Assembly: GCA_032718475.1 (NCBI GenBank)
Contig: JAUCBJ010007673.1
Coordinates: 5,156 to 69,155 of the forward strand
Length of the DNA stretch: 64,000 nt
Direction: 5' to 3'
From: Nemertoderma westbladi
Lineage: Eukaryota > Animalia > Xenacoelomorpha
Part shown: piece after piece, positions 17,247 through 46,500 of the stretch
Position numbering within the stretch: position 1 is the first letter of the stretch
Layout of the letters: every line of letters starts with the position of its first letter
Notes under the pieces: generated by a model
Seen by the model: only the letters and a program-made list of their open reading frames with translations
Database searches by the model: none
What the model was told of the DNA's origin: nothing
Position numbers and translations under genes: made by a program

Positions 17247-17257
17247 GTAGGAATATG
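17247..17257 (+). promoter_or_regulatory. E2 non-tRNA primer-binding site, complementary to its own LTR
   Basis: gtaggaatatg is the reverse complement of catattcctac at 16188-16198. Followed by the hairpin ttttactgaac-TACG-gttcggtagga (17258-17283). Confidence 0.8.
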
Positions 17258-17488: not shown

Positions 17489-18056
17489 GATTCAGAACTC
17501 ATTTCTAGGCTGTAACGGGAGCAAGACCGTGTTTAGCAAGTTTGGGAGATAGATAACTCAACAACTTTGGTTGGGAAAATCGCGTTTCGTCCGCAACGTT
17601 AAAAACGGAAAGGTTCACGTCCGGTTTGTATCTGGGAATCTGTTTTTCTGGAGAATTATTGGAGTGGGTGAGTTTGAAAAGTTGCATAAATAAGTTAGGC
17701 ATTACCGTATTAGTTAAAATTATTGTGGGTTCCACTGTCTCAAGTATTTATGCATTCCGTACGATTTCTTTGTTCATTGCTGAATTAGTCCGTATTATTG
17801 TATTTAATTTACCTTTTGATAACGCATATCGTTATCCGATTTATTTGTTGTAAAATTGGCCGCTAGGCTAATTTTATTATATACTTATTCCGTGACATTT
17901 ATTTGCTGTAAAATTGGCCGTTTAGGCTAATTTTATCCATCTGCTATAAAATCGGCCGGTAGGCTAATTTTATATGACTGTAATTAGTACCGTTTTATAC
18001 AAATACGGTAAACTCGATACTTTGACACTCACTTCACTTGACTTACAACTACCGAA

Positions 18057-21000
18057 ATGAGTGACAAACAAGACTATACGAAGAATACACAAACCGACTA
18101 TGACTCATGTGACGGAGATAAGTCAGCAGCGGAAGAACAACAGGGGAAGACTCGCGAGCCTACCGAACCTACACCGTGTGCGTCACCAGTACATCCAACG
18201 GGAGTACCGGATGCCGTAGTACGAGGCGACGGCAGGACCGAGGACTTTCTAACTGTTCCGCAACCTAGATATAGGGAAACGGAAATGGTAAGTTCAGCAG
18301 GAAGCACAGAAAGTGTGGTTAGAAGCGTCGGTGGATACATGGCGCATATAACCAGGAGTATTGGAGAAGGCCAACGCATATTAGATGGGTTGACCGCTCC
18401 GATGTCTCGATTCGAGTTCTACACCCTCCAGGTTAGAGTACAGAGTAAAGTATATAAGTCCGTAGATAATCTAGTTGGCCTACAAGATCTAGCTAGACAG
18501 AGACAGGACATGGATACTCAACTTAGAATCCTCGAGAAACTAATGATCACTAGAGAGAAACTAATTCAGTTTAAGTCGACGATTAGACAGATACAACAGG
18601 AACAAGCGGACCAGTTGTTAGGTGAGTCAGTTTCGGACGAATTATTACAACCCGAGGAAGAACAGGAACTGTACCGACTGGATGGACAATTGGAACACCT
18701 GACGGACCACTTACGCATGTGCGGCGAAGACGTCGGCGATTTGGAAACCGTGCCGGAATACACGAGGGAAACTTCATTTGCACAAATCGAATCGGCACCG
18801 GGAATACTAAATCAATCATTGGTAAGTATTCGTAGCGAAATATGCGAAGGAAGTATAGTCACGTCAGAAGTTGCTCGACAACAGCAGCAGTTCTACAGAC
18901 AGCAACACGAGATGGAAGAACAAACTCAACTGCTAATGATACAAACAGCAGTAGAGGAAGAGAAAATACGTGTTGCGAATGTAGCGAGAATCTCTCATCT
19001 GCAGGAACAAGCCGAACTCGAAGCGGCCGAAATGGAAAGGTTAGAGTTGGACATTGCCCAACAAGCGGCAGCGACCGAGTTAGCGCAACGAACGGCAACA
19101 GCCGAGTTAGAGCGACAAACGGCAGCGGCAGCGGCAGAGTTAGAGCGACAAACGGCTGCGGCAGAGTTAGAGCGACAAACGGCTGCGGCAGAGTTAGAGC
19201 GACAAAGATTAGTTTCGGAAGCCAGAGTCGAGATGAAGACACGGCAAATAAAAGCCCAACAAGCGATACGACAAGCAGAGTTCGAGGCGCAACAACAACA
19301 AACGGAACAACGAGAAAAGGAAGTTAAACTTCGTTTCGAACTTGAAAAAAGGGCGAGAGAATTAGCCGAAACCAAGGAAAATCTGGATCTTCTAGCCCGC
19401 GACCGATCGATGAGATCTCGTGACGGACATGATTTGGACCAGTTAGAGGTAAGACATCGCCAAATTCAGGAACGGAAGAAGGAAGGAAGCGTAGGAGCAC
19501 CCAGACGGGAACGACAATTAATAAAAGACGTGTGTCAACGATTCCCACAGGTAACTCATATGTTTGCACCGGTTACGACTAAGGAACCTGTTTCGATTGC
19601 GGGTAGTAGTGATATTTCTCCTATCCATGGTGCGACGGAACACAGGTTTGTTATTCCGGACGAGTTTATACCGCCAAGAGCAGCGTCGTCGCCTATTCCG
19701 AGAGTCAAGGTAAGTAACCCACCGATTACAGATCGTAGTAGTTTATTGACCGGACCTGCGCTACTGACGACAAAACAGGTGAGTCCACCTTTGACACCTA
19801 AACCCGTTACACATTACGCTTACCCAATGACGTTTCGACCTACAAGGCCAGCGGTTTCAAATGCTGTCATCCGACCACCGGTCCAGTTTACATCGCAATC
19901 TACGACTTCGAGGAAGACTTGTGAGCCTACCGAACAACGGAGAACAGTGGATACGCGACCGTTTAACCAGTTCACATCGCAATCTACGACTTCGAGGAAG
20001 ACTTGTGAGCCTACCGAACAACGGAGAACAGTGGATACGCGACCGTTTAACCAGTTCACATCGCAATCTACGACTTCGAGGAAGACTTGTGAGCCTACCG
20101 AACAACGGAGATCAGTGGACGATGTTCCGAAACGAGCCGTTAGAATTCGAACGACGCAACGGACGCGAGCACGTCGACCACCATATCCAGATGATAGTAG
20201 TACTTCGAGCGAATCGGATTACCCGAAACGCGAGGTATTTAGAACAGGGGCGGCCGATGAATATAAACGCGAGCGTTCAGACAACTCCTTTGCAGACAAT
20301 CCTCCACAGAATACACCAACACAGAAGGCGTTACAACCAACGGACGCAATTAGTACACAACAGTTCGCCGACATTCTGCGACCAGTTGTCAACAAGTTGG
20401 CTCAGATCGAGGAGCGTCTGGAGGAAGTTCAAACCGATAGTTCGAGGAACACCGAATTCGAACACAATAGACACCCGAAGGCACCACAAAGACCGGTACC
20501 TTCAAACCCCACATCGTATCAGGGAAAAGCGCCCAGAAGGGAGAACATCAACCAGGTTACCAACCAAGGACGCGAAACTCTGAACGTTGCCGAGGAGATA
20601 GCGAAATTCGCAGCCAGACAAGGATTGCCGGTACAACAACCACCGAAGTTCTCCGGTAGCTCAAAACACTGGCATACCTTCGTAGACTATATCGAATCCC
20701 AGATCGCCGTGTGCGCCTTTACATCACGGGAGAAGTTCAATTACCTGCTCCAAACGTTGTCAGGAGAACCTAAACGTTTGGCGGAGACCTTCGTCGGTGT
20801 ACCGGACGCTTTCGAACTAGCGTACGATCGTTTGACTTCGATATACGGAGGTACAGTGAGTATGGCCAGGTCAGTAATAGAGGAACTCTGTAAGGGAGGG
20901 GCTATCACTAAACCCGTCGACTTACTAAAACTGGCTGACGAGATTAAGAACGCTATCACTACCTTAAGATCAATTGGACAACTTGATTACGGGAATACCC

Positions 21001-22976
21001 CTACAGTTCTATTAAAGATAATAGGACGACTCCACCATCGACTTCGTCGGGAGTGGAGGAAGGTCGAATACCAGCGAGAGGAGCGGGGAGGATTCTTAAA
21101 ATTAGAAGATGTGTACCTTTTAATATCCAGGGAGGCGGTAGTAGAAACTCGATCTAACTATACCGACCAGCACATCGTGGCAGAAGGGATCACACTGCCA
21201 TCCTCCAACCGACAAAAACCCCAGACAACATCCACAAAGACGGCCACTTACGCCACACCGACGGAATCACGACAATTCTCAGACGGTAATAGAGTATCTG
21301 CGCCCATTGGGACGAAACAGACGAGACAGCAACTCAGCGCCGACTTCAACGGCTGCCAATACTGCGAACATCTAGGTAAGCGGTATATTGGTCACAAGTT
21401 ACGAGGTTGTCGACAATTTCGCGAGTTGAACTCGGAAGAACGACGGCTGCAGATACGGCCACTGGACTCTTGTTGGCGGTGTACGCGACACGGACACGTC
21501 CGTAAGGATTGCCCAAATACCGACACTTGTCCATCCTGTGGACGCAACCACGACGGTCTGCTCCTCACAGACAGCCACACGCCGACGAAACGCTTCGCCA
21601 GGGAACACCCGGAAGCAGCAGCGAGATGTGATGCAGCCTACCGAAAACGAGAATCGAAAACGACTCCAACTTTCGTGACCCATATTGAGGATTGCTTCTC
21701 AGAACAATCCGGATCGTCGGACGAAGAATCAGAAAACGACGACGAATATTCTAATGGAAACGAACAACCGTCAATCGCGCTCCTGACCACTGACCAACTG
21801 AAGGGATTCAGTGTAATCCCGATTAAGGTTACTGGCACAAAGGGGAGTAAGAGGATTTACGCGATTCTAGATTCAGCCTCATCTCACAGTTACGTGGATG
21901 AAAAGATAGCTGACGTCGTAACGGATCTCAGACAAGGTAAACACGTCAGTTATACAGTAAGTAGTATGCATGGCCAGCGTGCAATACCAGTGACACGAGT
22001 TAAGTTGGACTTAGACTCTCTTCTTCCAAAATCGCAACACAGCGAGAGGGAGAGATCTTTGTTACCCTTTAGAGATCTAACCTTTGCGGCCACGAAGGAC
22101 TTTAGTAACCTACTAGGTCCAGTGCCGGAACAATCTCTGGAGGACCGTAAGTATTTCAGACACCTTGGTGTACCCGAATGTCCTGTCAATTATAGATCGG
22201 TAGCAATGCTGATCGGGACGGACCAATTCAACCTACATCAGGTGTGGGAAACCAGACCGTCGGCAGTTGTAGCAGGAAACGCATACGCCTGCAGAACGCC
22301 GATAGGGTGGTATACTCGAGCGCCTGTGCGCACACTAGACGTAAGTGACGAGGAAGACGATGTACAGAGTACATGTAGTTTATTAACTACAAATTCAATT
22401 CATTCCTTTTCACACGACATGGACCATACTACACTACAGTCGACAAAACATGACAGACGTGTAACTAGTATGATAAGTCACAAGGAGCAGCTAACCCACA
22501 AGGTGAGTTTAGAACTTGGGGAGAAGACGAATCAGCTAGAGATTCCATCGACGACAGATGATAGGCTTGCGAGTCTACCTACCCCAATAACCTCAACAGT
22601 GCCCGTCGATATCGATGATGACGCGTTGAGAAATCATCAGTTGGAACAAGCCGCCTTGGACAAAGAATTAACGGAGAAGACTATCAGGTGGTTAGAACAA
22701 GATACAGCTGAACCTGGTAGCTACGAACCTTGCATGTCGGAACAGGAGAAACAATCTCTAAAGATCATGGAAGATACTATCCGACAGACGGAGGACGGAC
22801 ATTACGAGGTGGGGATGTTATGGCGTAGCCAAAGTCCTAAACTTATAAATAACTACCCACTGGCTTTAAGACGTCTACACTCAATACGACAACGTCTATT
22901 AAAGGACGAGAAAGCCCATCTGCAGTACAACACTCAGATGGAGACGTATTTGACTGAAGGATACGCTATCCGAATG
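18057..22976 (+). CDS. gag: E2 gag-pol 5' part (Gag, zinc knuckles, aspartic protease, pre-RT region)
   Basis: PKFSGSSKHWHTF Gag core, CWRCTRHGHVRKDC knuckle, protease AILDSASSHSYV, GHYEVGMLW and NNYPLALRRL BEL motifs. Interrupted after GYAIRM by a 1205-bp insertion. Confidence 0.92.
19883..20120 (+). repeat. 84-bp tandem repeat x3 in E2 gag
   Basis: QFTSQSTTSRKTCEPTEQRR repeated. The motif starts at 19912, 19996 and 20080. Confidence 0.95.
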
Positions 22977-24181
22977 ACTAACCCGGAGCGAGTACCTAAA
23001 GAGGTGAGGTCTCTATAGGGGTGCTCGGAAAAGGCGGCGGCGGACTCGTGAGGGTCTGGGGGCACGTTAAATCTGGGTTTATAGTGCTAGGGAGATACTT
23101 AAGGCCCTCGTGTCTAACGAACCATGAATTGCCATGGTGCCGTGGTTCCGTCTAGTCGGCCTGTTGCCGTACTGCCAGTCCTGTACACAGTAGGGGTGGT
23201 GGCATGGCGTGATTTGTGGCTCATGTGGCGTGAACTATGTTTTGTATGTGGGCGATCAGTGGCAGTTTGCTTGGGGCTTGGATGGTTCCATTGACCGTCA
23301 GCTGTTCCGTTTTTTTGATACTATATGTTATTGTCTCCATGTTCAGCTGATTGGTCTTTGGTGGCATTGGAAAAACCGTCGGGTCTTGAGCTTTCTGTTG
23401 CTGTGGGTACGTGAGTACACGTGATTGTATGTGTGGCCACTGCGAGTGGGTATGGGAACCCTTGCCAGTTGGACAAGACGCCGCTGGTATTAGTAGGACC
23501 ATACTCTACTGCACCCCAGCATACTTTGTGCACACAAAGTTATTTTACCCTGTCGGTAAAATAAGGTACTCTCGACTCTTTTCGAGTTTCAGTCGATACA
23601 ATTTTGTCCCTTCCGATTTTGTCTTTCCCGATTTTGACCTCGATTTTGTCTTACCCGATTATGTCCTCTGTGTGTGCATGGTATGTGTCAGATTTTGTGT
23701 TTACCGTAGTGTACTTGATTTCGTGAACATCTGTTGAGTACACGTGTACAGGACGGGTAAGTGGTTACTTGTTCCTAGCTTTCGAGTTAGTCAGTATTGT
23801 TGAGGAACGGTGTCCCCTCAATACTGCCGGCGAGGCAGGTGAAAACGTGTCAATATTCCATGTTGGGTAGCGCAAGCCCGCTTGGGACAAGACCGTCGGT
23901 TAGGCCCAAGGGCGACCTTGGTGCTCGATCGCTATCGACTGGTCCACCTGCCGGTTGACTCTTTGTTATACTTTGAGTTGGCTCAATGTACAGTCAGGCC
24001 ACAGTAAGTTGACAGTAGCCGCTCATCTGGCTACACGTTCGACGAGCTGTGCCGGTGTGATCGGGGGACCGAAAACAGAACCCGGGAAGCATCGGGCCAC
24101 CCTGCGGCCTGGTTTGGTTTGTCACCGGCCCCCAGGGTGGTGGAAAGGTGTCCGCCTCGTGGGTGCGCCTCGGGGAGGAGC
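22977..24181. mobile_element. 1205-bp GC-rich structured insertion of unknown class in E2 pol, no TSD
   Basis: Removing it gives GYAIRM-PEGHKWTDQTYYLPHHYV, which aligns without gaps to E3 GYAERVPEETPITERTYYLTNHYV. Hairpins lie near both ends. Boundaries are uncertain by a few nt. Confidence 0.75.
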
Positions 24182-27100
24182 CCAGAAGGACACAAGTGGA
24201 CCGACCAGACATACTACCTGCCACATCACTATGTGAGACATCCCGACAAACCAGATAAAGTACGCGTAGTCAATGACTGTGCGGCTCTGTTTGAGGGAAT
24301 GTCCCTCAATAGTGAGTTGATGGATGGACCGAACATGAATAATTATCTTATGGGGGTGATTATGCGCTTCCGTCAGCGTCAAGTAGCCTTTACTTGCGAC
24401 GTTGAAGCGATGTTTCACCAAGTAAAAGCGTTAGAGCGAGACAGAGACAGTTTGCGGTTTCTCTGGTATCCGGAAGGGGACTTAAGTCTACCACCAGCGA
24501 CTTACCAAATGCAAGTTCGCGTTTTCGGTGCCAGAGACAGCCCAAATTGTACGATGTACGCCTTGAAGCAAGCCGCTAGAGATCAGAAACATCTGTATGA
24601 CCCAGAGATAATTAGAATTGTAGAACGTGACTTTTACGTTGATGACGGTTTACAAAGTTGCGACACAGTAGAACGTGCTACAATAGTAGCACATCAATTA
24701 CGGGACTGCTTGGCGGGCGGAGGTTTTAACCTCACCAAATTCGCCTCAAACAGTGCCGAATTAGTTGACTCATTCGGAACTACTGAGCGTGGAGGAGGTG
24801 ATATAGACCTAGAGTTCGAACCACTACCGACGACTAAGGTGTTGGGGCTCTTTTGGGACCCAAACACAGACAACTTTCGAGTGAAGGTGAGACTGGACAG
24901 TCAAGGGAACACGCTGACCAAGAGATCATGCTTGTCAAAATTGAGCCGATTGTTCGATCCGTTAGGATTCATCAGTCCAGTGATACTGCAAGCCCGCATT
25001 TATATGCGCAGTATATGGAAGGATGGACTAACATGGGACGAGCCGATCTCATCAGACCAAGTGGACTTATGGAAGACCTGGGAGGCGGAATTGTCTTCGC
25101 TAGAGGATTATTTCATACCCAGGGTTTACTTTCCATTACAGAGTACATTTCCTGACAACTTGGAACTACACTGTTTTTCTGACGCCAGTGACAACGGTTT
25201 TGGTGTGGCAGCGTATTTGCGCAGACAAGTAGAATCAGACGAGTTCGATGTTTCGCTCATTACTTCTAAGGCTAAGACCATGCCTACTAAGTATATGACG
25301 ACACCACGAGCCGAGCTACAAGCCGCAACCCTGTCAACCACCATCGTGAACCTCATACAGACAGAACTACAGTCGAGTTTACAGATATTTTATTGGACTG
25401 ACGCGACGTTAGTTTTATTTTACATAAACAACGACACTCTCGAATTCAAGACATTCGTAGCTAACCGTCGCGCGGAAATTCTAGACCGTTCAATAAAAGA
25501 GGATTGGCGACATTGCCCCGGACCACAAAACCCAGCTGATATTGCGTCGCGAGGAATGATGCCTGAGGAATTCTGTAAACCGGAGAACAAAGAGTTTTGG
25601 CAACACGGACCCCAGTTCTTGCAGAAATCGACACAAGATTGGCCTCCGTTATACGACAACAAGTCCAACACTATTCCCAAGGACGCCGAAATCAAAAAAC
25701 CAAAAAGGGGGAAGACAAAGAAAAAGACAACGGCGGCAAAACTCAAGAAAAAACCGAAGGCGAAATGGAAGGATATAACTTCAAAGGTCAAGAGAGGAAG
25801 ACTTGCGAGCCTTTCTACACCAGACATATCGCCAGACGGTCAACCAGACACGTTACCAGACGGTCAACCAGACATGTTACTAGACAGCCAACCAGACATT
25901 TTGCCAGACATATCACAAAATGTTCCACCAGACGCTAGTAACACACTGACATACAGTAAAGCCGCAGTTTCCCTATTGGAGCGGCCTTCTATTGACAAAC
26001 AACCAGATACGTTACCAGACGTATCGCCAGACACATTACTAGACAGTCGACTAGACATTAGTAATGTATCGACTAACAATAAAGCCGCAGTTTCCCTATT
26101 GGAGCGGCCTTGTATTGACAAACTACCAATTTTGACACACTTGAGCAACCATAAGCATGGTGAAACCTCATGTATTACAGATGTGGGTAGTACCTACGCT
26201 AATGTAAATACAGGTGTTACTTTGCGCTCAAGAGACATACCGAACTTACAACCTACGGTGAGACCTGGGATTAATGTCGGCAGGAAAATAAGTTTACCGA
26301 AACCTGCTGACCCCATAGAGTTCAAACCACCATTAACGATCGACTTACAAAGTACCGACAATCAAGGTAAGAAGACAAAGAAGGACAAATTACTTGTAGA
26401 CCCGGACGGATCAACAGTCAACAAGGGAATACTTACCGGCGGACCCGTGGGCCCTTCTAGTAATTCAAAACCTTCCAAATTCTCCATTGACTTACCTGAT
26501 GACGTCACAAATACTCATGTCGACCGTATTGTAAACCTAACAGATTCTTGGTCAAACGCTTGCCGAAAATTAGCGTGGATTGTACGTTTTGTACAATACG
26601 TTAAAGGCAAACGTGACTTTACACGTCGACTTACATTGGCTGAGATTGACAGGTGTGAGATTAAATTAATTCGCCATTACCAACTGCGATATTTCGCGCG
26701 CGAATTCACATCTATACATCAAGGTCAACCAATCAAGTCGTCACCGATACTGAGTTGGAGTCCGATTATTTACAATGGCTTAATTTGTCATAAATCTCGG
26801 CTTCAAAACATTGACTTTAACACAAACTTTAGGTACCCAATAATAATACCGCAACACCACGAACTACAACGTGCAATGATACTGGACGCACATCTACATC
26901 TGAAACACGCTGGAAGACACCACTGTCTTTCCTACTTACGTACTAGATTTGTATTAATTAGACCCAGTAAAGCATTAAGTTCCGTGACACGTACGTGTAT
27001 TATTTGTAAAAAGGTACATTCTAGAATAGGTACCCAAGAAATGAGTGAACTACCACAAGCACGACTTCAAGCATTCAGACCACCTTTTACAGAGACTGGA

Positions 27101-28027
27101 ATTGATTGCTTTGGTCCCATACATACGAAACGTGGACGTATACTAGTAAAACGCTGGGGACTGATTTTCACATGTATGTCCAGTAGGGCAGTTCACATTG
27201 AACGTGTGATGGATCTTTCCACCAACGCGTTTATACTAGCACTGCGGCGATTTATCGCTAGACGCGGACTAGTAAAATGCTTGTACTCAGACCAAGGGAC
27301 AAACTTTGTTGGTGCTCGGAATGAGATTGCTAGAGCCTTTAAGAAATTAGATCATGATCAAATCTCGAACGAACTGCAACCTCACAAGATTGTTTGGAAG
27401 TTCAATCCTCCAGATAGTCCTTGGAGAGGCGGAGTCTGGGAGAGATTGATTAGATCTATCAAAACGGCCATGGCAAAGGTCATTCCAGTAAACCACATAT
27501 TAACAGACGACCAACTGACAACATTGTTTGTTGAAATCGAGGCAATACTAAATACTAGACCAATAGTATTAGTACCCGATGACAAACAATCTCAGTTCGC
27601 TTTAACACCAGCACACCTGCTTATGCAGGCACCGACCACATTGACGCCGATTTCCATTCCAATGGAAAGCGATAGCTACGGTAGAAAAGCGTGGAAAATC
27701 ACGCAACTACTGGCTAACAAATTCTGGGAAATATGGCAAAACCATTATTTGCCCTCTATTTCTGCCAGAACAAACTGGTACAATAACACCCGCGCATTAA
27801 AGCCGGGAGATCACGTGCTGTTGGCAGAAGTGAATCTAAAAAGACGCTTCTGGATAACAGGTGTCATTTTAGCCACACATCCATCTATGGATGGAGTGAC
27901 AAGAACTGTGACGGTACGGACAATTGACGGTCGTACAGTAGACAGACCGACTCAACGTCTCGTACTTCTTGAAGAGACTCGTAACGAGTCTGGAGATTAC
28001 AAATCTCCACCTAATACTAGTAAATAA
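24182..28027 (+). CDS. pol: E2 pol 3' part: RT, RNase H, integrase
   Basis: RT: VAFTCDVEAMFHQV and DFYVDDGL. Pao RNase H: LHCFSDAS, TPRAELQAA, YWTDA, NPADIASRG. Integrase: HHCC zinc finger and DDE (GIDCFGP, YSDQGTNF, WERLIRS). Confidence 0.95.
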   Translation, partial: PEGHKWTDQTYYLPHHYVRHPDKPDKVRVVNDCAALFEGMSLNSELMDGPNMNNYLMGVIMRFRQRQVAFTCDVEAMFHQVKALERDRDSLRFLWYPEGDLSLPPATYQMQVRVFGARDSPNCTMYALKQAARDQKHLYDPEIIRIVERDFYVDDGLQSCDTVERATIVAHQLRDCLAGGGFNLTKFASNSAELVDSFGTTERGGGDIDLEFEPLPTTKVLGLFWDPNTDNFRVKVRLDSQGNTLTKRSCLSKLSRLFDPLGFISPVILQARIYMRSIWKDGLTWDEPISSDQVDLWKTWEAELSSLEDYFIPRVYFPLQSTFPDNLELHCFSDASDNGFGVAAYLRRQVESDEFDVSLITSKAKTMPTKYMTTPRAELQAATLSTTIVNLIQTELQSSLQIFYWTDATLVLFYINNDTLEFKTFVANRRAEILDRSIKEDWRHCPGPQNPADIASRGMMPEEFCKPENKEFWQHGPQFLQKSTQDWPPLYDNKSNTIPKDAEIKKPKRGKTKKKTTAAKLKKKPKAKWKDITSKVKRGRLASLSTPDISPDGQPDTLPDGQPDMLLDSQPDILPDISQNVPPDASNTLTYSKAAVSLLERPSIDKQPDTLPDVSPDTLLDSRLDISNVSTNNKAAVSLLERPCIDKLPILTHLSNHKHGETSCITDVGSTYANVNTGVTLRSRDIPNLQPTVRPGINVGRKISLPKPADPIEFKPPLTIDLQSTDNQGKKTKKDKLLVDPDGSTVNKGILTGGPVGPSSNSKPSKFSIDLPDDVTNTHVDRIVNLTDSWSNACRKLAWIVRFVQYVKGKRDFTRRLTLAEIDRCEIKLIRHYQLRYFAREFTSIHQGQPIKSSPILSWSPIIYNGLICHKSRLQNIDFNTNFRYPIIIPQHHELQRAMILDAHLHLKHAGRHHCLSYLRTRFVLIRPSKALSSVTRTCIICKKVHSRIGTQEMSELPQARLQAFRPPFTETGIDCFGPIHTKRGRILVKRWGLIFTCMSSRAVHIERVMDLSTNAFILALRRFIARRGLVKCLYSDQGTNFVGARNEIARAFKKLDHDQISNELQPHKIVWKFNPPDSPWRGGVWERLIRSIKTAMAKVIPVNHILTDDQLTTLFVEIEAILNTRPIVLVPDDKQSQFALTPAHLLMQAPTTLTPISIPMESDSYGRKAWKITQLLANKFWEIWQNHYLPSISARTNWYNNTRALKPGDHVLLAEVNLKRRFWITGVILATHPSMDGVTRTVTVRTIDGRTVDRPTQRLVLLEETRNESGDYKSPPNTSK

Positions 28028-28686: not shown

Positions 28687-31600
28687 ATGGAGAAAGGGAT
28701 ACAAGGAGAGCCGAGATGGGGATATGATATCCAAGAGGAGGCAGCAGCGCCATTCGAAAGATTTGGAGCCAAGGATTACACTATATTTGGTATAAAAGAA
28801 TTATCGGAAAGTACAGCGAAACTCGCGAGAACTAAATATGACTCGAATGTATTAAAGAGAAGGCAAAACGCATTGAACGAAAGAATCGAAAGTTTGCGCC
28901 AAACCTTCAATGAACTTTACCCGTACGATGCTTTGTGTGACACGGGAGACATTAGCGAAGACCCCGATACTGAAATTAGTCGTTTGTATCATACCATGCA
29001 ATACCTAAAGGCGCATGAACCTATGCCCGCGGTACGCGATGAATTCGATGGAATGCATCTTTACAGACGAACTCGAGGGGACGATAGAGAAACCAAGGAA
29101 GCATTTTCAGTTTATAAACTTTATTATCAATGCGGTTCTTGTATGCGCGAACAACGAAATGCGATTCCGATGCGTTTGAATAAGGAAAATCCCGAACCGA
29201 TATTGGCGAGGTGTTCGAATCATCAACAACTACGCTACCAGGAAGGAGGGTATCCTTTATCGAATCCATATCATTCATTTGCTATGACCGGACCAAAGGC
29301 GGGAGAAACTGTCATTTACCCACCTAAGGTTGTTGAACCCGATGTATTTGAACTTACGCTGGACGAGGCGAATCAGTCAACCCGCGAAAAGAAAGAAGCT
29401 CTTAGCCTATACAGAGCCTACAAGGCTTTCGAGAAAGGTGAGATGGAAGAATGGGGTGGAAGACTCGCGAGCCTACCTTGCCATTGGACGTCACACGATC
29501 AAACTTCAGCTAAGGAGATGACACCGGAAGTTTTCGAGAGCATAAACTTTGCTCAAAACGTTATTCAGAGACTACAGATTGCATCCCCGGAGAGGCCAAG
29601 AGAAATGCAACCGTATAGTACTTCAACTACGAAACCATTGAGTACGACACTCAATTTCCCTATTAGTATACCAGTCCGACAGGATACGACGTACGAAATA
29701 CCCATCGTGGATCATCCAGAAATCATTTCAAACTTGGAGTTTCTTCCTGCAGTTGTTTTCAGCGATATGAGTAAGATATATGATTTACGTAGACATATTA
29801 CTCAAAAGGTCGTGAACAACGTTCCACCTCATATCCAAGATTTTAAGGAACTGGATAGAGCTGGTGCCGACATAGCTCCGAGTAATCTGAAAGGATATCT
29901 AACCAAGACGATTCGTTTATGGATTGGAACCGGAACCTTCGAGTCGGATACGGATATTGCCGCAGATTGGCGAGGTAAGGTTATTCGTTTCGATGAGGAT
30001 AAGGATATAGAGAAGATTTGGCAACCTTCGGAAGAATTGTTGGATGAATGGACTAGGACGTTTAGATCGTTTCAGGAAAACGGTTATATGTTTTACGATA
30101 ACGAGGGCGGCAGTCATCAGCAGAGTTTGACTTCTAAGACTATACAGATTAGAGCGGCGGACGGAGTCCTGCACGTTTTCAGTAGACAGAGGAGCGACAA
30201 ACGAATGCCGATACCTCCAGCGAATACAAAGCGACACCATCTTATCACCGATATAGTAAAGAAGATGGACCAAGCTTGTAATATTGACGCTAGAATGCTA
30301 CCGAAGATGGTAAGAAACATGATTTTAGATAAAACTGTTGTAAAGGTTGGATCAGGAGTAAGGGAGGATCTAATTAGCGACTTCGCCGGCATGACGGACA
30401 GCGATGACCGACTACCGACACCATACGTCGACACTCGACCTCTTATTCTGTGGTCTATAGAACAGGGATATTTTCGTGAGTATAATACTCAGAAGACTGG
30501 CACTGGATACATTTCCTACCTGTTATTCAATTGGGATTATAAGGAAGGTAAAAGGAACAAGTATATTGAAACTTATGGAGAAGGTGATACTCCAGATATG
30601 AGTGAGTTTGAATCACAGCTTAAATGGAGAGGATGCGTGTATTGGGCTATTACGTCACCTCCAAGAGCGGTCTTACAATATTATTTAGCGATAGAGTCGT
30701 CAGTGAATGTTTGCCTAATCGCCGACATTGTGTCTCGGACTCTCAAAAGACATCCACTTTGTCTCGGAGAAGATCATACGTTCTACATGGAAGGGAGAAT
30801 TCGTACCGACGTGTTTAGACGATTCCTTGAACCCTTCTACAACTCCGACGCTCAGTGTAATGCCTTTACTCGAGCAGGATTTAGTATATTTCGAGACGTG
30901 TATCTTCGCTGTGCGGGATCTCTTATCGAAAGACCATCTATGTTTACATTGTTACCCTATGAAGGAGAACGTATCGTGGAGATTATGGATGAATCACGGC
31001 AGACGCGCGCGCCTATCGGTCACCTTGGTGATGAATTCGAAGTAACTACTACGATCGCCGACGATCCTTTAGAGGAACTTCTTGAGATTGAAAGGAACCT
31101 CCCGAAGAAATCTCAGACGGAGATTCGACAACTTGAAGCAACAGATGCTATAGTTTGCCTACAACCTTCAGAAACCTACCAACCCATAGACCCAGATGAT
31201 TACGATTATAGTATGGGAGGAAGCGCTCGACCGATTGGAGATCTTATATACGAACGAGTGTGGTACCCTGCCAATACGATGTGTAATAAATGTGGCGTCG
31301 CTGGACATCATATGGCAAAGTGCAGTGGAAAGCACATTACTACGACTCAGCTAATCTGTGGATGGTGTGGGGATCAAGGGTCTCATACCTTTTATACTTG
31401 CTGGAGATTTATGGCTCAATGTACTTACTGCAATATAAAGGGACATCGAGCATCTGAATGCCAACTGAGAGACATACCTTATGAACACGAATCTGTAAAA
31501 CTCGTGAGGAAGTTATTTGATGAGTGGGAAGATTTGGCCGACGAACATGTATCGGCACAAAGAAGACGGTTTCCGATGAGAGCGCATCTCGGATTTTGGG

Positions 31601-32412
31601 CGGTAAATCCTCAAACGATGATGTCGGAAGGATATATCTCCGCTATGCCCCAATATGACGAACTTATCGAGGTTGTCGATATTTTGCCCCACTACAGCGG
31701 ATTCCGAGTGGTGCGCGAGTATCTGTTACAAATTCACCCGGATAACAAAAACACGTGGAATTTTCAGAAAGTCGTTAATCGGATTACGTATGGTGAATTC
31801 GATCGTTTCCGAACTGAAAAGCGGAACAAAGGAGCTTGGTTAACCGTCGCATGGGCGTACCGAGCCGCGTTTTACCACAAACGTATACGAGCGAGCGTAT
31901 TCGAGGAAGAAGAGGTCCTAGAGGCGACAAATATACCAGCCACTCCGGTTGCGCCGTCTGCACGTCACCCTCGAGAGGACGGACAGGGTAGGATCATACG
32001 GGTCCAGAAAGTGGGCCAACAATTGAAGAAAATTATTAATGTAGAAGAACGCAAGGGAGTTGAGCCGACTATTCGAGTTACTCGGGATACGGTATCACTT
32101 CCAAGAGAACCGGTAGGAGGATCGGGACATACACCAGCTGATCAACAGGGGGCGCAAGCTACTCTTGGGTCTGCGTCGTCCACTCCTCGCGCGTTCCCAG
32201 ACGTTCTACCAACTGTAGCGACAACTGATCGGTCACGAGGAATTGGTCGAGGTTTTGGGATGCCAAATAGACGAATTTGCGAGGAAATAGTTGCACCGTC
32301 TCTCAACGTCCCAAGTAAACCAGTGACTCGCCCCATTAGTCCCATATCGCGAGCAAAGTCACCTGTGCGCAGTTTTCGAGGACGCGGCAGGGCTCGATCT
32401 ACTAAGCGATAA
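28687..32412 (+). CDS. E2 ORF3: DEDDy 3'-5' exonuclease (WRN/EXD/Mut-7-like) with CCHC zinc knuckles, 1241 aa
   Basis: ExoI MFYDNEG, then IQIRAADGVLHVF, LPKMVRNMILDKTVVKVGSGVREDL (ExoII), PYVDTRPL and YYLAIES (ExoIII-like). Knuckles CNKCGVAGHHMAKC, CGWCGDQGSHTFYTC and CTYCNIKGHRASEC. Preceded by an acceptor-like actaac...ccctctag ending at 28656. Confidence 0.8.
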   Translation: MEKGIQGEPRWGYDIQEEAAAPFERFGAKDYTIFGIKELSESTAKLARTKYDSNVLKRRQNALNERIESLRQTFNELYPYDALCDTGDISEDPDTEISRLYHTMQYLKAHEPMPAVRDEFDGMHLYRRTRGDDRETKEAFSVYKLYYQCGSCMREQRNAIPMRLNKENPEPILARCSNHQQLRYQEGGYPLSNPYHSFAMTGPKAGETVIYPPKVVEPDVFELTLDEANQSTREKKEALSLYRAYKAFEKGEMEEWGGRLASLPCHWTSHDQTSAKEMTPEVFESINFAQNVIQRLQIASPERPREMQPYSTSTTKPLSTTLNFPISIPVRQDTTYEIPIVDHPEIISNLEFLPAVVFSDMSKIYDLRRHITQKVVNNVPPHIQDFKELDRAGADIAPSNLKGYLTKTIRLWIGTGTFESDTDIAADWRGKVIRFDEDKDIEKIWQPSEELLDEWTRTFRSFQENGYMFYDNEGGSHQQSLTSKTIQIRAADGVLHVFSRQRSDKRMPIPPANTKRHHLITDIVKKMDQACNIDARMLPKMVRNMILDKTVVKVGSGVREDLISDFAGMTDSDDRLPTPYVDTRPLILWSIEQGYFREYNTQKTGTGYISYLLFNWDYKEGKRNKYIETYGEGDTPDMSEFESQLKWRGCVYWAITSPPRAVLQYYLAIESSVNVCLIADIVSRTLKRHPLCLGEDHTFYMEGRIRTDVFRRFLEPFYNSDAQCNAFTRAGFSIFRDVYLRCAGSLIERPSMFTLLPYEGERIVEIMDESRQTRAPIGHLGDEFEVTTTIADDPLEELLEIERNLPKKSQTEIRQLEATDAIVCLQPSETYQPIDPDDYDYSMGGSARPIGDLIYERVWYPANTMCNKCGVAGHHMAKCSGKHITTTQLICGWCGDQGSHTFYTCWRFMAQCTYCNIKGHRASECQLRDIPYEHESVKLVRKLFDEWEDLADEHVSAQRRRFPMRAHLGFWAVNPQTMMSEGYISAMPQYDELIEVVDILPHYSGFRVVREYLLQIHPDNKNTWNFQKVVNRITYGEFDRFRTEKRNKGAWLTVAWAYRAAFYHKRIRASVFEEEEVLEATNIPATPVAPSARHPREDGQGRIIRVQKVGQQLKKIINVEERKGVEPTIRVTRDTVSLPREPVGGSGHTPADQQGAQATLGSASSTPRAFPDVLPTVATTDRSRGIGRGFGMPNRRICEEIVAPSLNVPSKPVTRPISPISRAKSPVRSFRGRGRARSTKR

Positions 32413-33205: not shown

Positions 33206-36200
33206 TATAGAATTATATTCCCTAAATGCCGTGGATTTTCAAAATTTTATTTTATTCGAATTAACTTTGTAAAGATTGCTTTGAGTTCTCATTAGTATTG
33301 GTTCTATCTATTGTGTATCTATCGGTCAAGTGGTTCAGTAGCTCAGTTGGTAGAGCGTTGGAAATTATATGTGTAGTAGGTATCGAGTTCGAATCCTAAT
33401 AAGTGCGAATTATTTTTTGTGCAGAATTTCAACTCATTTAAATTAACCGCTACAAATTAATTGCATTTGTCTGTACCAATGAGACCGTAGTTATTTGATT
33501 GTAACCAATGTTGTGTAAGTTATATATTAGCTGGACCAATAAGCTATCTTTAAAACCTTGTTAGAACCTATAGAACAATCGAGAATTTTCTCGATTGATT
33601 GCGGCACAAATTTGGTATAAAAAGGTGCGATTTCGTTCATTAATAAAATCTACTTTAGTTCACTTACTACTACTTTAGTATACATTATCTTATCAATATT
33701 CTGTCGTGCTTAGTTTATTCTCAGATTACATTGTATTATAATTGTATCTTCTGTAATAAAGTCAGAATATTCTCTCAGCTTTTCTGTTTTACTATGGTTT
33801 CACTACGGTGAACAAACTCGGGGACAGGATGGCCAGCTAGAGATCGGGCCGCAGCAATGAACGGGAACATCACGGGAATGTAGACGAGAGACAACCCGCA
33901 ATACCATTTAGAGTTATTCGCCCATCGCCTGAAAGGTTAGACAGCGTTCGATCCTTGCTACCTAAGTGTAAGACCAAAAGATCAAAGGTAGACGTAGTGA
34001 CACGCTGCAAGCCTAAAATTACATCATAGGGACTGTGGGGCGAGCCACGAAGTGAGTGAGCCTTAGCGTAGTGGTACCATTAATCAACCTGTCGTTCTGT
34101 CGTTCTGTCGTTCTGTCGTTCTGTCGTTCTGTCGTGTTCAATTTTAAACGTTAATAACTCAGCCAATCTTTGATGAAATCTATCCAAACTTGGTACACAT
34201 GTTGTTTGGCAAAAGTTTAGAAATTTTCCAAGTAGAATTTCCGTGTGGCCTTCGAGAAGCTAAGATAATAGCAGTTAATTAGTTAATTAAGTTGATTACG
34301 GTGAAAACACAATTTTCAACCTGCCTTTTAAAGGAAATTAATTGTTTTACAGTATAAGATTTAAATAATTATAATTAAAAATTATACAGATGTAATCCAC
34401 ATACGCCATTCTATTATAGTTTTTAATTAGTTCAAGTGATTTGCTTTAATAATTGTGTCTTTAATTGATCTAAAGTAATTAAAACGGCATAAAAAATGGA
34501 TTCTCATTAAATACTGATCATTTATTGGCCAACTTGCAAGTTGGCTGGTACATAGATGGGGGATGTGTGTGTAAGGGAGCCAGTTGCTGGGAATGCCAGT
34601 GGAGGGGGGTTGTATGTAACTAGCCACACGGCTGCCAGCTAGACCTAACGAGATTGAAACCTGCATTCCCTACCTCCTATTACACTATAGAGTCTGTGTT
34701 CTTTAGTCTCAGGTAATAGACAGATCTCATTTAATGATTGTCAGTCAATAAGATTACCACTGCAGAAGGCTTATATCCAAAATTGTTTATTTCTCAAAAT
34801 ATTATGCTTATTATTTTTTGATGGGATTTCTGTGTATTTTAATTGTCTAAGTTTTCAGAGGCATTAACAGTATATTAAATAAATTATTTGAATATCATTC
34901 ATTACTGCATCGACTGTATTTAGTACTGCGTAGATTATATTCCTATAAACCACCTGGCTTCGCATATTGAACGTGCGATTGGAAATAAGTTCGTGCTACC
35001 TTCCGTGGGTGGTAGATGTCGCGGTTATGTATTGGTGGGTGGGAAGGGTGGGGGGGGGGGGGGGGTGGGGTGGGGTGGGGTGGGGTGGGGGTGCAGATTT
35101 AAAGGGCTGAACACGTACTGTCCCTCTTTTTTTGATTGATTGGCGGTGTGGTTAAATTTCTAAATTTTACTAATTTATAAAGTTAAATACTGATTTTGTG
35201 ATACAGTCGCTCGATATTAATTTGTATCTCATAACTGGGCCTCGTGTTGCGCGAAGGCCCCACGAACGTGTACTGTCTTGATTCAGGAAAACCCACAGTA
35301 GACCTTCACATTCCTACGGGAGGGAGAGAGAGCAGATACTAGTACGCAGATAGGACGTAGGCACACCGGTACAAGGCATACACATTGGTTAGGGTGCAGC
35401 AAACTGTACGCTTAACTCTTGCTAAGTACAGGTGTGTGTGCGACTATTTGCAGTACGACCGTGTCTATTACATCAGAACTTGTAGGCTAGGGGGGTTGCT
35501 GTGTTTTCACCTGAATTGGGATTGTACCGTTCAGGCGGTAGGGCAGTTTACGCTAGGCGCAAATAAATTGAGGCTATCAGGGATATACTAACATCTACCG
35601 TGTCCCCGCCAACGCCCTAATAGGAAGTTACCCGGACTACCTGGGTGACTAAAATTCTGGATAGGAGCCAGGATAGCTATTAGTACCCGTACGCCTACAG
35701 TAGTAAACTAACACATCTCTTCTTAGTATCAGGGACCTGGTACCTAAAATTGCCGAATTCTGGGCGTAGTATTAACCTTATGCCTGAATTTGAGTCCTGG
35801 AAATACGCAAGAGGGGAAGGAACCTTATCATTCGTGAGTATTAGACCTACAAGTTATAAAATTAGAATATTCGTAAAATGCACACCGTACCCAGTAATTA
35901 TATATGTGAAGGAGCAAAACTGCTTTGACCGTTCAGAATTAACACGCGCGCGTTAGAAATTATTTACACCTCAAAATATATAAAATTAACTTTCGTCCTT
36001 ACTGCACTTTGCTCGCTAGTTAGACATCTCCAAATATCTGCCTCTGTACCTAGCTAGCGTCTCTTTGCCCAACCATATAAATCACACCGCGGCAAAGTAT
36101 ACGAGCCCCTTAGTCCGTCAGTGAGTCAGCCTGATTTTAGGATTCGCTGCGCGGGATTTTGTTTTATCGAAGTTTGTCTGCTCGTAGACTGTTTTCTGCC

Positions 36201-36367
36201 TCACCGGTTAAAAGAGATCGATACTGCAATATATTCGCTTACTTAGGGTTTACTGTTTTGGTGAGAAGGTCGGATTTATGATTTGATTTACAAACTTTAC
36301 AGTAGGATATTGCAGGTATTGTTACCGTCTCTTCCGATAGTAGGAATAGGCGTATCTCTCCAATTTA
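33206..36367 (+). repeat. E2 3' LTR, interrupted by the 34037-35268 insertion
   Basis: Matches the 5' LTR on both sides of the insertion. Preceded by ggagcgg and followed by the TSD ttgta. Confidence 0.93.
34037..35268. mobile_element. HINE/Helentron-like non-autonomous element inserted at TGT in the E2 3' LTR
   Basis: The empty site in the 5' LTR reads gggactgtactgtc; here tgt flanks both sides. Sub-terminal inverted repeat gagccttagcg / cgcgaaggccc, (CTGTCGTT)n microsatellite, terminal hairpin gggcctcgtg-ttg-cgcgaaggccc. Confidence 0.75.
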
Positions 36368-40689: not shown

Positions 40690-41980
40690 AGTCTCAAATA
40701 TTTTCGGACGTATTTGGTGGAAATACACTCACAAACGCATATATTAATTCGTAGCTGGGAATACGAGTTTTTTTGTTCGACCTGGGGAAAGAGATAGGGG
40801 TGAAATACATACACTCCTTCGTAAGTGCGTCCTGTATAATACCAATGGCGCGACTTGCAGTGAAGATCTGCGCTAGCTTCCCAAGCTCATATGTATCGAA
40901 GTACAATCAACTCGTCTACACTTTCAATGTCTTGGCTAAAAGGGCAATCCCAACTAGCGTGTCCTTTTAGTTGACAGTAATAACGGTATTGCGTCATAAA
41001 TTAGGGGCAAACCGCAAACATATGCTTGTTGTTGATCAGGCAATAAGCACAGTAAATCTCCATAGCTGGTTGATCCTCAAAATAAGACAAAAGCTCTTCT
41101 GATTCTGGTGAAGTAGAATCTCGGTATGCTTCTCCACTACCTGATTCCTTTCGTCACATTGACATCACTTTTCTTCTAAGAAATCAGATAGGGAGTATAC
41201 ATATCTCGAATCGATATCTTTCTCTAGGTTCTCGATTTGAATTTCCATTACTGAGTATCCCGAGGGTATCTTGGGTTGGGTCGCTACAGGACGGAGGAAT
41301 GCGGGTTCTAGGTGCAAACATCTTTAAAGATGGCAAACCCAGTGCTAACCAGTTTCTCAGCAGCGGCATCCTGGAGGCTGAGTTTGATCCACACGTGATC
41401 TTTGAACTGACTATCAACGTTCCGAAACGGAGTCAGAAAGTGCCTAAAACATTCATATCGAATGAACTTATTATGTTTGTATTACGCTCGTATTTTAGGA
41501 AGTTAACCTGGGATGAAGGGGTGAGAACGCATTCTTCGGCTGCACACATCAGCTAACCATCCAGAAAGTGCGGTGTTCTCAAATATGGCGTAGATGGCCA
41601 AGGAAGTACGGAGGAGAACACTCGTGAAACTATAAACTGCGCCAATCGCGATATGCTTCTCCTCGAGCTGATTCTCTCTTCTGGTCGTCTGAGTGTTTCC
41701 CTAAAAACTCATGGTAGAAAATACACGCATTCGAGGTTGATGTCATGATCGATTCGTGGTTTATCGCGACATTACGTTGTCTTTGCGCATGGAATCGAAA
41801 TAAAACCATCTCAGTTTATATGTCTAGATCATCTGTATCTCATAGATCAATAGGGTTTCCCATAGTTAGGAAATCCATATACGTATAATTTCGATGAATG
41901 TAACGCAAGGTGAATTTTCGATATATAAATTCATGCTGGAGTTGTACTTTGGTCATCGGTGACTCGATGTAGGGTCCATC
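40690..41980 (-). pseudogene. Decayed ORF3 (exonuclease/zinc-knuckle ORF) of an older E3-like BEL element
   Basis: 41380-41470 resembles 44825-44915, 41750-41945 resembles 47445-47640, and 40694-40906 resembles the ORF3 C-terminus (KTRIPSYEL). Its start lies at 60446-60590 (MDLIEEDLDINERYT). Confidence 0.8.
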
Positions 41981-41984
41981 ATCC

Positions 41985-42270
41985 GCTGCAGTTTCCACCT
42001 TGGTGTAGTGGTTGCATTGAATTCACATCTCCTGTAGGTCGTGGGTTCGATCCTCACATGGACCAGGGCAGTTTTCGTTTCGGCACGAATGCTTTAAAGG
42101 GACCAGCCAGGGCGCATCTCTGCCTTGCATCCTTAAGTGGTAGTGAAATGAGTACTGGTGTTTCCTCTGGGGAGTAAAGTTCTGGGGGGACCGCACTGGA
42201 AATAAGTTGTCAGACTTTGAGCGTAATCCCTGGCATAGTGGCTGAAGAAAATTTACTTTTATTTTACTTT
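41985..42270 (+). mobile_element. tRNA-derived SINE
   Basis: A box tggtgtagtgg, B box ggttcgatcc, a Nin/Deu-like core gccttgcatccttaagtggtagtgaaatgagtactgg and a tttactttt tail. Confidence 0.65.
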
Positions 42271-43483: not shown

Positions 43484-43561
43484 CCGCTCCCAGAAAATGG
43501 GATTTAAGTCTATAAAATATAACAAATCACAGTTTCTAAAATATAAAAATACTCTAAACAG

Positions 43562-46500
43562 TTAGTCTTTCTTACGCGGACGGCGTTTACGCAGTTTTTT
43601 GAGGCTAGCAAGAGTCCTTTTCTCTTTGGGGCGAGCCACTTTACTAGGAGGGCTGTAACTCCTGGGTGAAGGGTGCAATACAATTGCATCAGAAGGTTTA
43701 GGATTACGATCGGTGTATCCGCCGGTCGAGGTACCTGGTTGATCGATATCAACTTCAGTGGAGCGAGGTCTAACAGCCTTTAGGGCGCGTCTTAGGACAG
43801 CAGCTCCTACGGGTCCTTGACGGGTCGTTTGGACAATGGCGGTAGGTGGACCGTGAGTGGTGAGAAACTTCCTCGGTTTAATGGTTCTTTCCAGCTCGCG
43901 TTCTCGGGCTCGATATTCGTAGGGCCGTCGAGATACTTCCTGTAACTCAGGGTGCGAGTTGATAAATAAATCTCCATACTCAGGGTCTTGACGGATGAAA
44001 TTGATCAAATGGTATGAAGTAATATCGTTAGGATTGACGTTCCTGAGATATTTTCGAATTTGGTGGAAATACACTCACCAACACGCTTCATTAGTTCGTA
44101 ACTCGGTGTGCGTGTTTTTTGTTCAACAGATGCGAATAAATAAGGATGGAACGCGTAAACTCCCTCGTAAGAGCGTCCAGGGTAATAGCGATGGCGGGAC
44201 TCACAATGTAAATCCGCGTTCGCTTCCCAAGCTCGAATGTAGCGCAGGGTAATCATCTCATCTACGCTTTCTAAATCGCGGTTAAAGGGGCAATTATAAC
44301 TGGCATGTCCTTTAAGTTGACAGTGGTGGCATTGAGTCATAAATTGGGGGCAGACTGCAAAAATGTGCGAGTTATTAAGTCTGCAATACGCACAACAGAT
44401 CTCCATCATCGGTTGTTCGTGGAAATAGGAGCAGGGTACGTCTGAGTCCATAGGGGTGAAATGGTCTCTCGATGCGCATAATCGACAACGTTTTCGAGAA
44501 ACATAGTTGGCGTGTCGATAATCGTATGCGGTGAGACATTGTGGACCTTGATACCACTCTAAGACGTAGTCGTTATCGCTGCTCCGGGGCGCTGTAGGCT
44601 GAATCGCCTCAGATTCTAAGCATATTGGTTCGTCTTCCAATTGCATAGCTGAGGTAGGTGCGGCTGTCTCTGCAAGCGGACCCACTGTCTGAACTTCCAC
44701 GACAGAATAACCCGTGGGTATTCGGGGTCTTTGTATAACAGATGAATGTAAGTTCTGTATACAAACGTCCTGAAAAAGGGCAAATCCCGCGCTGTTTAGC
44801 TTCTCCGCAGCTGAGTCTCTTAGGCTGAGTTTGGTCAGAGCGCGGTCCTTGAACTGACTATCAACGTTACGGAACGGAGTCAGAAAGCGCCTGAAACATT
44901 CGAAGCGGATGAATTTATTGTGTTCATCTAACTTGGCGAGTTTGGTTCCAAGTATTAAGGGATGGGCGCGTATGGTACGACTGCACACATCGGCTAGCCA
45001 ACCGGCAAGTGCTGCGTTTTCAAAGATCGTGTATATAGCTAAGGAGGGACGAAGTGGAACACTCATAAAGCTATACACGGCGCCAGGTGCGGACAATGGT
45101 CCATCAAAGTATAAACGAGAATAATGATCTCCATATACTTGTTGGTAATTGATAGGATTTCCAACCTTGAAATTCCATCCGTATTCTTGAAAGGCGAGAT
45201 GTCCGATGGAGGTTCGTTGTACTTTAGTAATGCCGCTGGGTGTATTGGCATACATAGTGCGGAAGAAACCTCGGCCTTCTGCCCAGGGAGCAATCAGCTG
45301 AGTATCAATGAAAGGGTATGGAATGTTCTCCATATTCCGAAAGTCGTTTTGTAGATCTCCATAAACAGCTGAGCCGATTTTAAGGATTCTTTCGTTAAAC
45401 AACATCTCGAGCACGGGCTGGGGTAACATCGATCCATCGATACCCATGGCCGGTTTGCGCTCGGTGTCGGTGACGTAACGCTGCGCGAGTTCAAATTGTC
45501 CATGTCGGAGTTTCTTTTGTGTCTCAGTAAGAGTTTCAAAAGAATAATCAATCACATCGGAACACGCTCGAGTAAATACGTGGGTAGAACCAGCGAGTCC
45601 TCGTATGTGTATCATCCGCGTAGTTCCCAGTTCTCCAACCGGAACGCTACCTTCGTTATCGTAAGTGACAACTCCATACATATCGATAACGTTAAGAGTC
45701 TCGTTCCACTCTTTAGTGGCGTTCTCGAGGGTCATTCCCACTGGGTGCCACAAGGTAGCACATTCGCTAGCATTAGGTAGATCTCTATACTTTAAGTATT
45801 GTGTAGTACATGTTTCCACATCTCCATATCGTTGTATTCTTTCCTCCTCGAATAACACGTCAAGATTCCAGTGTACTAATCGAGTTTTGATGAATCCATC
45901 AAGATTATGCGGAGGTATTGTTTCTTTCTCTATTCTGGAAACATTATATGGTTTTCGAAATGAGTTTATTTTAACTAACTGATCCAGATGTTTCTGCAGT
46001 TGTTCGAGTTCGACAAGATCGAGAGGATTTATTAGTGGTAGAAACCTCAGACTATGTGTAGGATCTTCCGGTTTTACCATGTAATATTGTGTTAGATTGA
46101 CGTAATAAGGGTGATCTTTGATCCCATAAAACGAGTCCGGTAAAGGTCTAGCGCGTATGTTAACATTGTGTACCATGCGATGGACAAGATCCGCTCTATT
46201 GTCCGGAGGTTCAATGAGTATACCATCGACACGAGCGGCTTCGATGGGCGGATGTTGCAACATGGGAGCGTCAGCAATAAGATCTCGAGATCTTAGGTTG
46301 ATATCAACCGGTTGGGGTTGTACCGTCGCAAAGAGTTTGTCTCCGAAATGGGGAACCATCGAGGGATGAAGGATGGTTTTAGAGTAGAGATCCGTCATAA
46401 GGATTTGAGCTTCGGGTTGGGCTAAAGCTGCTTCTTCTCTCTCATCTAGTTCTATATGTCTCTCCTCGAGCTGATTTTCCTCCGCTTGTTGTTGTAGACG

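Follow-up and report, generated by a model that had tools for sequence, protein, structure and literature searches.

An env-position reading frame of a BEL/Pao retrotransposon from Nemertoderma westbladi encodes a predicted DEDDy-type exonuclease with zinc knuckles

What does a long, intact reading frame do in the env-gene slot of a retrotransposon when its product does not look like an envelope protein? The question is raised by ORF3, an open reading frame (ORF) of E2, a BEL/Pao long terminal repeat (LTR) retrotransposon from Nemertoderma westbladi. E2 lies in a stretch of 64,000 nucleotides (assembly GCA_032718475.1, contig JAUCBJ010007673.1, positions 5,156 to 69,155, forward strand; hereafter the window) that contains three LTR elements (E1, E2 and E3) and one remnant. 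ORF3 encodes a selected, non-membrane accessory protein, and we propose, with a probability of about 0.35, that its task is to trim 3' ends of the element's own RNA where these are single-stranded. The frame occupies the env-gene slot of E2, starting 660 nt downstream of the end of the integrase-containing frame (28027), and is organised as follows:

28687..32412, plus strand: ORF3 of E2, intact, 1241 aa, translated without a stop
28951..29223, plus strand: N-terminal block (residues 89-179) conserved between E2 and E3, ending in CxxC...CxxH, a predicted zinc site
29959..30786, plus strand: predicted DnaQ/DEDDy-type exonuclease domain (residues 425-700) with D471, E473, D561, Y666 and E670; D582 is also invariant
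30982..31266, plus strand: linker, acidic and with little conservation (21 D/E among 95 residues)
31282..31461, plus strand: three CCHC zinc knuckles (residues 866-925), from motif and profile matches
31504..31690, plus strand: post-knuckle motif (E-x2-AD...R...G...P...Y), invariant in all six aligned sequences
31927..32409, plus strand: low-complexity basic tail (29 R/K, 18 P and 14 S in 161 residues)

A first-pass annotation, made from the sequence alone, had described an intact 1241-residue ORF after integrase, with D-x-E, KVGSGVRED, VDT and Y-x-x-x-E motifs, three CCHC knuckles and an N-terminal CxxC...CxxH, and had argued that the product is not Env; all of this was borne out. The exonuclease motifs are YDNEG (residues 470-474), KVGSGVREDL (553-562), YVDTR (580-584) and Y666-x3-E670, the knuckles are found at 866-879 (CX2CX4HX4C), 891-905 (CX2CX5HX4C) and 912-925 (CX2CX4HX4C), and the N-terminal set is C149-x2-C152...C176-x2-H179. 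Hydropathy, used alone and with no dedicated predictor, revealed no membrane segment (maximum over 19 residues 1.38), and the N-terminus is not hydrophobic (11-residue maximum 0.56); the signal peptide and transmembrane anchor that mark Env are thus not seen. The loose motif pattern is weak by itself, being matched by 1,087 of 5,000 shuffles of the domain, and support for an exonuclease therefore rests on conservation and fold. A tuned pattern (8 of 20,000 shuffles) was discounted because it was composed after the sequence was seen. Also discounted was a branch-point/acceptor-like sequence 30-60 nt upstream of the E2 ATG: none precedes the ATG of E1 or E3, and the window holds 33 such sites.

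A search with ORF3 residues 372-1078 against 1.84 billion representative proteins gave five matches, three of which were retained: the unnamed metagenomic ENA proteins P0003, P0005 and P0006 (558-715 aa). The other two, a plant protein (P0002) and a copia-type polyprotein (P0004), were dropped because they were matched by their knuckles only. All three retained proteins have the exonuclease-like region, an acidic linker and three knuckles, followed by the post-knuckle motif seen in ORF3; ORF3 is therefore a member of a family. When a profile of these three proteins only was run against the six frames of the window, it recovered ORF3 of both E2 (E 5e-30) and E3 (E 7e-18); since the proteins had been found using E2, only the E3 match is independent. 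Word-index protein searches returned no further relatives, a result of little weight given that one of them missed the alignment's own members, and scans of metagenome contigs, viral contigs and plasmids for the locus setting of the three proteins gave no match. Three further copies of ORF3 sequence are present in the window:

43562..47786, minus strand: ORF3 homolog of E3, in four pieces, with the same motifs
11408..12329, plus strand: ORF3 remnant of E1, with the 5' part and knuckle module kept and the exonuclease part deleted
40698..41992, minus strand: older, decayed remnant of ORF3 (70-73% identity to E3), with Y-x3-E kept

The E2 and E3 proteins are 27% identical over 714 columns (E 2e-59). 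The earlier statement that the motifs persist in a very divergent E3 ORF3 holds for the motifs, all of which are kept, but the frame itself is not intact, with one stop and two frame changes between its four pieces. The fossil copy of related ORF3 sequence reported in the first-pass annotation can be recognised in the older remnant, whereas the E1 copy is a young deletion derivative without the exonuclease part. In addition, contigs of three sequencing runs (X1, X3 and X4) are about 82% identical to ORF3 over 29460-30640 with few or no gaps; judged by this identity, they are a further ORF3 subfamily in the host species.

Across the five homologs, which are only 21-34% identical, D471, E473, D561 and Y666 are invariant. 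The last acidic site (670) is Glu in E2, E3 and P0005 and Asp in P0003 and P0006, which gives a signature tetrad of DEDE in three homologs and DEDD in two. In the 177 ungapped columns, every homolog has an acidic residue at 5 of the 20 positions that are acidic in the query (D471, E473, D561, D582 and E670), and these five include all four acidic signature positions. A profile alignment places D561 on D171 of EXD2 (residue numbers shifted by 75, as deduced from a construct spanning 76-295), and a second EXD2 stretch, below significance, places Y666 and E670 on Y242 and D246. D171, Y242 and D246 are catalytic residues of EXD2 (PMC6648332). The second motif, K-x-G-x5-D, aligns with both EXD2 and WRN. 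The predicted ORF3 exonuclease is probably enzymatically active, and two-metal catalysis would proceed with Glu at the last position.

The fold was modelled template-free from the five-sequence family alignment. The resulting model of the exonuclease domain has a mean confidence (predicted local distance difference test, pLDDT) of 61 and a predicted template modelling score (pTM) of 0.67, with pLDDT values of 80-86 for catalytic motifs one and two and of 64-70 for motif three; D471 and E473 of the ExoI D-x-E motif lie on model strand 43-50 (pLDDT 80). A single-sequence AlphaFold model (pLDDT 30) was discarded. Comparison of the family-based model with 48,161 chains yielded 50 best matches, all of which we take, from chain titles and general knowledge of the families, to be DnaQ-like exonucleases or polymerases with that domain (root-mean-square deviation (rmsd) 3.5-3.9 over 163-178 residues). 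Among these listed matches diDNase scored best (Z 11.5), and others include the Nibbler EXO domain (Z 11.3, rmsd 3.7 over 178 residues), Pol I proofreading domains (10-11), RNase D (10.5), WRN (10.4), Egalitarian (10.1), Exd1 (9.7), RRP6 (9.7) and trypanosome RNase D, TbRND (9.6). The top Z scores of NrnC, Nibbler, RNase D, WRN and Pol I lie within about 1.5 of one another, and no subfamily is therefore singled out. EXD2, NrnC and TbRND headed the Foldseek results (E 0.002-0.003), 24 of 30 Atlas matches fell into PF01612 clusters, and the sequence-profile search of the PDB was led by EXD2 (E 0.005) and WRN. A phmmer search of the PDB with the whole of ORF3 gave 0 matches, BFVD held none under E 0.001, and HIV RT p51 profile rows (E 0.2-0.35), confined to one short stretch, were taken as chance. 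HRDC, a mark of the Rrp6/RNase D subgroup, had no Pfam match at E 10 in residues 681-865, a region outside the model. Residues ~425-700 almost certainly adopt the predicted DnaQ/DEDDy exonuclease fold, in agreement with the annotation that had named structure prediction as the test.

ORF3 is under purifying selection. Variants were surveyed in contigs of four sequencing runs (three or four studies) covering ORF3; the best-supported places are listed and neighbouring variants are unphased, so the survey describes common variants. Across the whole stretch, 29 of the best 40 of 256 variant places fall in ORF3, 20 of them synonymous, and none of the 12 listed indels (of 31) does. Within the exonuclease domain, 31 of the best 40 of 94 variants are synonymous against 21-30% expected, and these 40 include no stop and no indel at a frequency of at least 2%. 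Changes in signature codons among the listed variants are limited to 473 and 561, both silent. For E1 against E3, the ratio of nonsynonymous to synonymous divergence is lowest in the knuckle block (0.06), followed by the 5' part of ORF3 (0.15) and gag (0.22). The synonymous excess largely refutes the suggestion that ORF3 is a captured host gene carried passively, which we regard as very improbable: the loss of the domain from E1 and the broken E3 copy would fit a passenger, but the same position is kept in two families whose reverse transcriptase (RT) regions are only 44% identical, and purifying selection argues directly against it. A separate observation concerns the synonymous divergence of E1 from E3: it reaches 0.88 in the knuckle block (11732-12258 vs 44055-44581), compared with 0.34-0.38 in gag and the 5' part of ORF3, a difference suggesting that subfamilies have exchanged modules.

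Outside the exonuclease domain, the knuckles gave profile matches to Air2 (E 2e-7), Lin28, HIV nucleocapsid (NC) and TbRND (E 0.003), and by sequence they resemble those of these RNA binders. The post-knuckle motif has no Pfam match. Domain and profile searches yielded no family for the N-terminal block; L33 rows (E 0.3) were taken as chance.

The closest working model, by analogy, is TbRND, in which the knuckles contact RNA at a distance of five to nine bases from the 3' end; RNA binding and efficient trimming both depend on them (PMC7797062). The ORF3 knuckles would likewise hold RNA near its 3' end, a few bases away, and guide it into the active site, and trimming would stop at a duplex or a bound protein. 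Candidate substrates, the most speculative part of this proposal, are host-added 3' tails on genomic RNA and the overhang beside an 11-12-bp self-primer duplex. The latter is suggested by the following pairings:

3369-3379 with 2606-2616, plus strand: E1 primer-position pairing, 11 nt
17247..17257, plus strand: E2 primer-binding position, with no TGG or tRNA-type site, pairing with 16188..16198
16188..16198, plus strand: candidate self-primer in the E2 LTR, 11 nt (0.0006 expected by chance), with a one-base difference in the copy of the 3' LTR
59253-59264 with 59987-59998, minus strand: E3 primer-position pairing, 12 nt

No TGG, as part of a tRNA-type primer site, occurs in the 25 nt past the 5' LTR of any of the three elements. 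Instead, the first 11, 11 and 12 nt past the 5' LTR of E1, E2 and E3, respectively, pair perfectly with one LTR site (chance expectation 0.0004-0.0009 per element); equally good pairing is found at 7 of 9,453, 16 of 15,946 and 1 of 15,768 internal positions, in the same order. The related elements E1 and E3 show compensatory differences in this pairing. The LTRs of E2 differ from each other at few places, several of which cluster within and just before the candidate primer site. Complementarity between the sequence after the 5' LTR and the element's own LTR is the signature of Tf1/sushi-type self-priming, and judged from the pairings all three elements appear to self-prime. Tf1 is a Ty3/gypsy element whose primer is generated with RNase H, and to our knowledge it has no exonuclease ORF, whereas the elements here are BEL/Pao and carry the exonuclease ORF3 in E2 and E3. 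A narrower role, which we consider improbable, is that ORF3 is a dedicated primer-maturing exoribonuclease of a self-priming BEL/Pao lineage: the knuckles would hold the element RNA while the DEDDy domain shortens it as far as the 11-12-bp duplex next to the LTR, yielding the 3'-OH that starts reverse transcription. If true, a gene in the env slot would be contributing an enzymatic step that is new to retroelement replication.

Several results weigh against trimming of the element's own RNA. The last catalytic Asp is replaced by Glu in three of the five homologs, including ORF3 of E2. Egalitarian retains all five residues and yet they are dispensable for RNA binding and oogenesis (10.1101/2025.08.03.668247), so conservation is no proof that catalysis matters. 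The model is of middling confidence, with pLDDT below 50 at model residues 208-236, no Foldseek match reached E 0.001, and Pfam gave no exonuclease match in any member of the ORF3 family. The linker between domain and knuckles is long and acidic, whereas that of TbRND is short. As for the primer, a 3' exonuclease by itself cannot excise it from a continuous transcript, and beyond the primer duplex the LTR end is predicted to take part in a second helix.

An active, knuckle-tethered RNase could instead be aimed at the host, where it would shorten or destroy Piwi-interacting RNAs (piRNAs), small interfering RNAs or their precursors and so counter silencing. Nibbler and Exd1 are known from piRNA pathways, and their domains are among the best structural matches (Z 11.3 and 9.7), but the near-tie of the top Z scores does not single out Nibbler, and the 2'-O-methylated ends of small RNAs generally resist such enzymes. 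EXD1 is assigned to the piRNA pathway in PMC5408684, which also describes DEDDy ORF3s in unrelated elements, a distribution that favours a general benefit; the rotifer families that bear them are, however, without clear copy-number gain. Overexpression of TbRND depletes a small-RNA class (PMC7797062), and many variant copies are present in the host species. We consider this counter-silencing role possible but unlikely, and slightly favour the element's own RNA over host small RNA as the target.

A further alternative, which we find rather doubtful, is that the fold persists as an RNA-binding module, specific for 3' ends or for structure, with dispensable catalysis, of the kind seen in Egalitarian, Exd1 and Exu; the protein would then localise, export or package the element RNA. 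Egalitarian itself is the precedent (10.1101/2025.08.03.668247), and CERV is an LTR element encoding a non-Env RNA-export factor (PMC10309623). The many RNA-binding parts and the basic tail of ORF3 would suit such an adaptor, as would the Asp-to-Glu change at the last site, but the residues that stay acidic at 21-34% identity are almost exactly the catalytic set, two homologs have a canonical DEDD-Y, and the rotifer ORFs likewise tolerate a D-to-E change (DEED; PMC5408684). An exonuclease acting on DNA, which would trim or proofread cDNA 3' ends before integration, is less plausible still. WRN acts on DNA in vitro. So does EXD2 (PMC6648332), and these two proteins provide the best sequence-profile matches, with Pol I proofreading domains at Z 10-11 in the structural comparison. 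ORF3 is nevertheless a separate frame that is not fused to RT, its knuckles match those of RNA binders, and the two LTRs of E2 are uninformative either way. If active, the ORF3 exonuclease probably prefers RNA over DNA.

Capture of an exonuclease ORF3 has itself a precedent, as had been noted in the first-pass annotation: the bdelloid rotifer Juno, Vesta and Athena elements carry DEDDy ORF3s (DEED), which were not assayed (PMC5408684). The nematode precedent mentioned alongside it was not recovered, the word 'nematode' occurring 0 times in the main text of that paper. PMC5718144, PMC6431247 and PMC6338049 repeat only the rotifer case, and the available parts of PMC13524379 and PMC2774666 hold nothing further on exonucleases. 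Like the ORFs of Juno and Vesta (and of Athena/Terminons), ORF3 is a separate frame after pol that encodes a DEDDy-type exonuclease with no transmembrane segment and one D-to-E change in the tetrad. The carrier here is BEL/Pao, however, and the tetrad is DEDE rather than DEED. Compared by description, ORF3 has 1241 aa, three knuckles, the post-knuckle motif and the N-terminal CxxC/CxxH, whereas the rotifer ORFs are described with a Cys-His-Cys motif only. TbRND (PDB 7c42; PMC7797062) shares the order of a DEDD exonuclease followed by tandem CCHC knuckles (fold Z 9.6, knuckle profile E 0.003), and the first Atlas match of P0003 is a Euglenozoa exonuclease+CCHC cluster (0.87, a lead only). TbRND differs in being a cellular mitochondrial enzyme with four knuckles, a short linker and 12% identity; the shared architecture is likely convergent. 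With the EXD2/WRN-exo/Nibbler(Mut-7)/Egalitarian/NrnC group (PF01612), ORF3 shares the fold and the order of the catalytic motifs at only 9-17% identity and with no Pfam match; its insertions are larger, with 195 residues from D471 to Y666 vs 134 in EXD2.

In the literature covered, to which subscription journals, Repbase and supplements did not belong, there was no exonuclease ORF in BEL/Pao and no knuckle fusion there; ORFs of this type may be documented in Repbase. What appears not to have been described so far is such an ORF carried by BEL/Pao, the architecture of the family, and the combination of this ORF with self-priming. Exonuclease ORF3s were found in that literature only for rotifer retroelements and had never been assayed; here, in a second LTR superfamily, the same slot is occupied by a different family, which is old, under selection, equipped with an RNA-binding module of its own and accompanied by three unnamed relatives. 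As the gene is intact, its catalytic signature is clear and an analogue, TbRND, has a solved structure, the role of a retrotransposon nuclease in RNA-end processing, primer making or the defeat of small-RNA silencing becomes directly testable.

The elements themselves are laid out as follows:

2107-14097, plus strand: E1, a deletion derivative of E3's family
15321-36367, plus strand: E2, BEL/Pao LTR retrotransposon
15321..17246, plus strand: E2 5' LTR, ends TA...TA, 5-bp target duplication TTGTA, 99.5-99.9% identical to the 3' LTR
18042..23018, plus strand: E2 Gag (DUF1759; PF03564 E 3.6e-11), knuckles, protease-like motif and start of RT
24008..28027, plus strand: remaining E2 RT, RNase H region and integrase, BEL/Pao type (PF05380 E 4e-42, PF18701 E 9e-21, PF17921 E 1e-4)
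33206..36367, plus strand: E2 3' LTR, with a 1.23-kb insertion at about 34037-35268
42308-60440, minus strand: E3, BEL/Pao LTR retrotransposon

Pfam assigns E2 and E3 to BEL/Pao by DUF1759, Peptidase_A17, an integrase zinc finger and DUF5641; the gag type, the protease–RT–RNase H–integrase order and LTRs with a 5-bp target duplication agree with this class. The two elements are distant, with RT regions 44% and gag 21-28% identical. LTR pairs are 99.2-99.9% identical across the three elements (E1 99.2%, E3 99.6%), and all three insertions are therefore young. The near-identical LTRs of E3 together with its many stops and frame changes point to either a non-autonomous copy that moved recently or assembly errors. 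In E2, the frame from gag to the start of RT closes with a stop, and the next 1.1 kb or so (about 23019-24160) show no homology to E3 pol; this stretch has no match elsewhere in the window, differs in strand composition and is probably an insertion. The E2 LTRs measure 1.9 kb and end in TA...TA, not TG...CA. An apparent 319-bp flanking duplication of E2 proved to be a host repeat unit of about 315 bp split by its insertion. The 1.23-kb insertion in the 3' LTR is non-coding; it contains an 8-mer array and a G-run, a short inverted repeat lies close to its ends, and its start resembles 14821-14856. The long 5' leaders of E1 and E3 hold 288- and 121-bp tandem repeats (3733-4312, 58406-58993 and 57113-57468).

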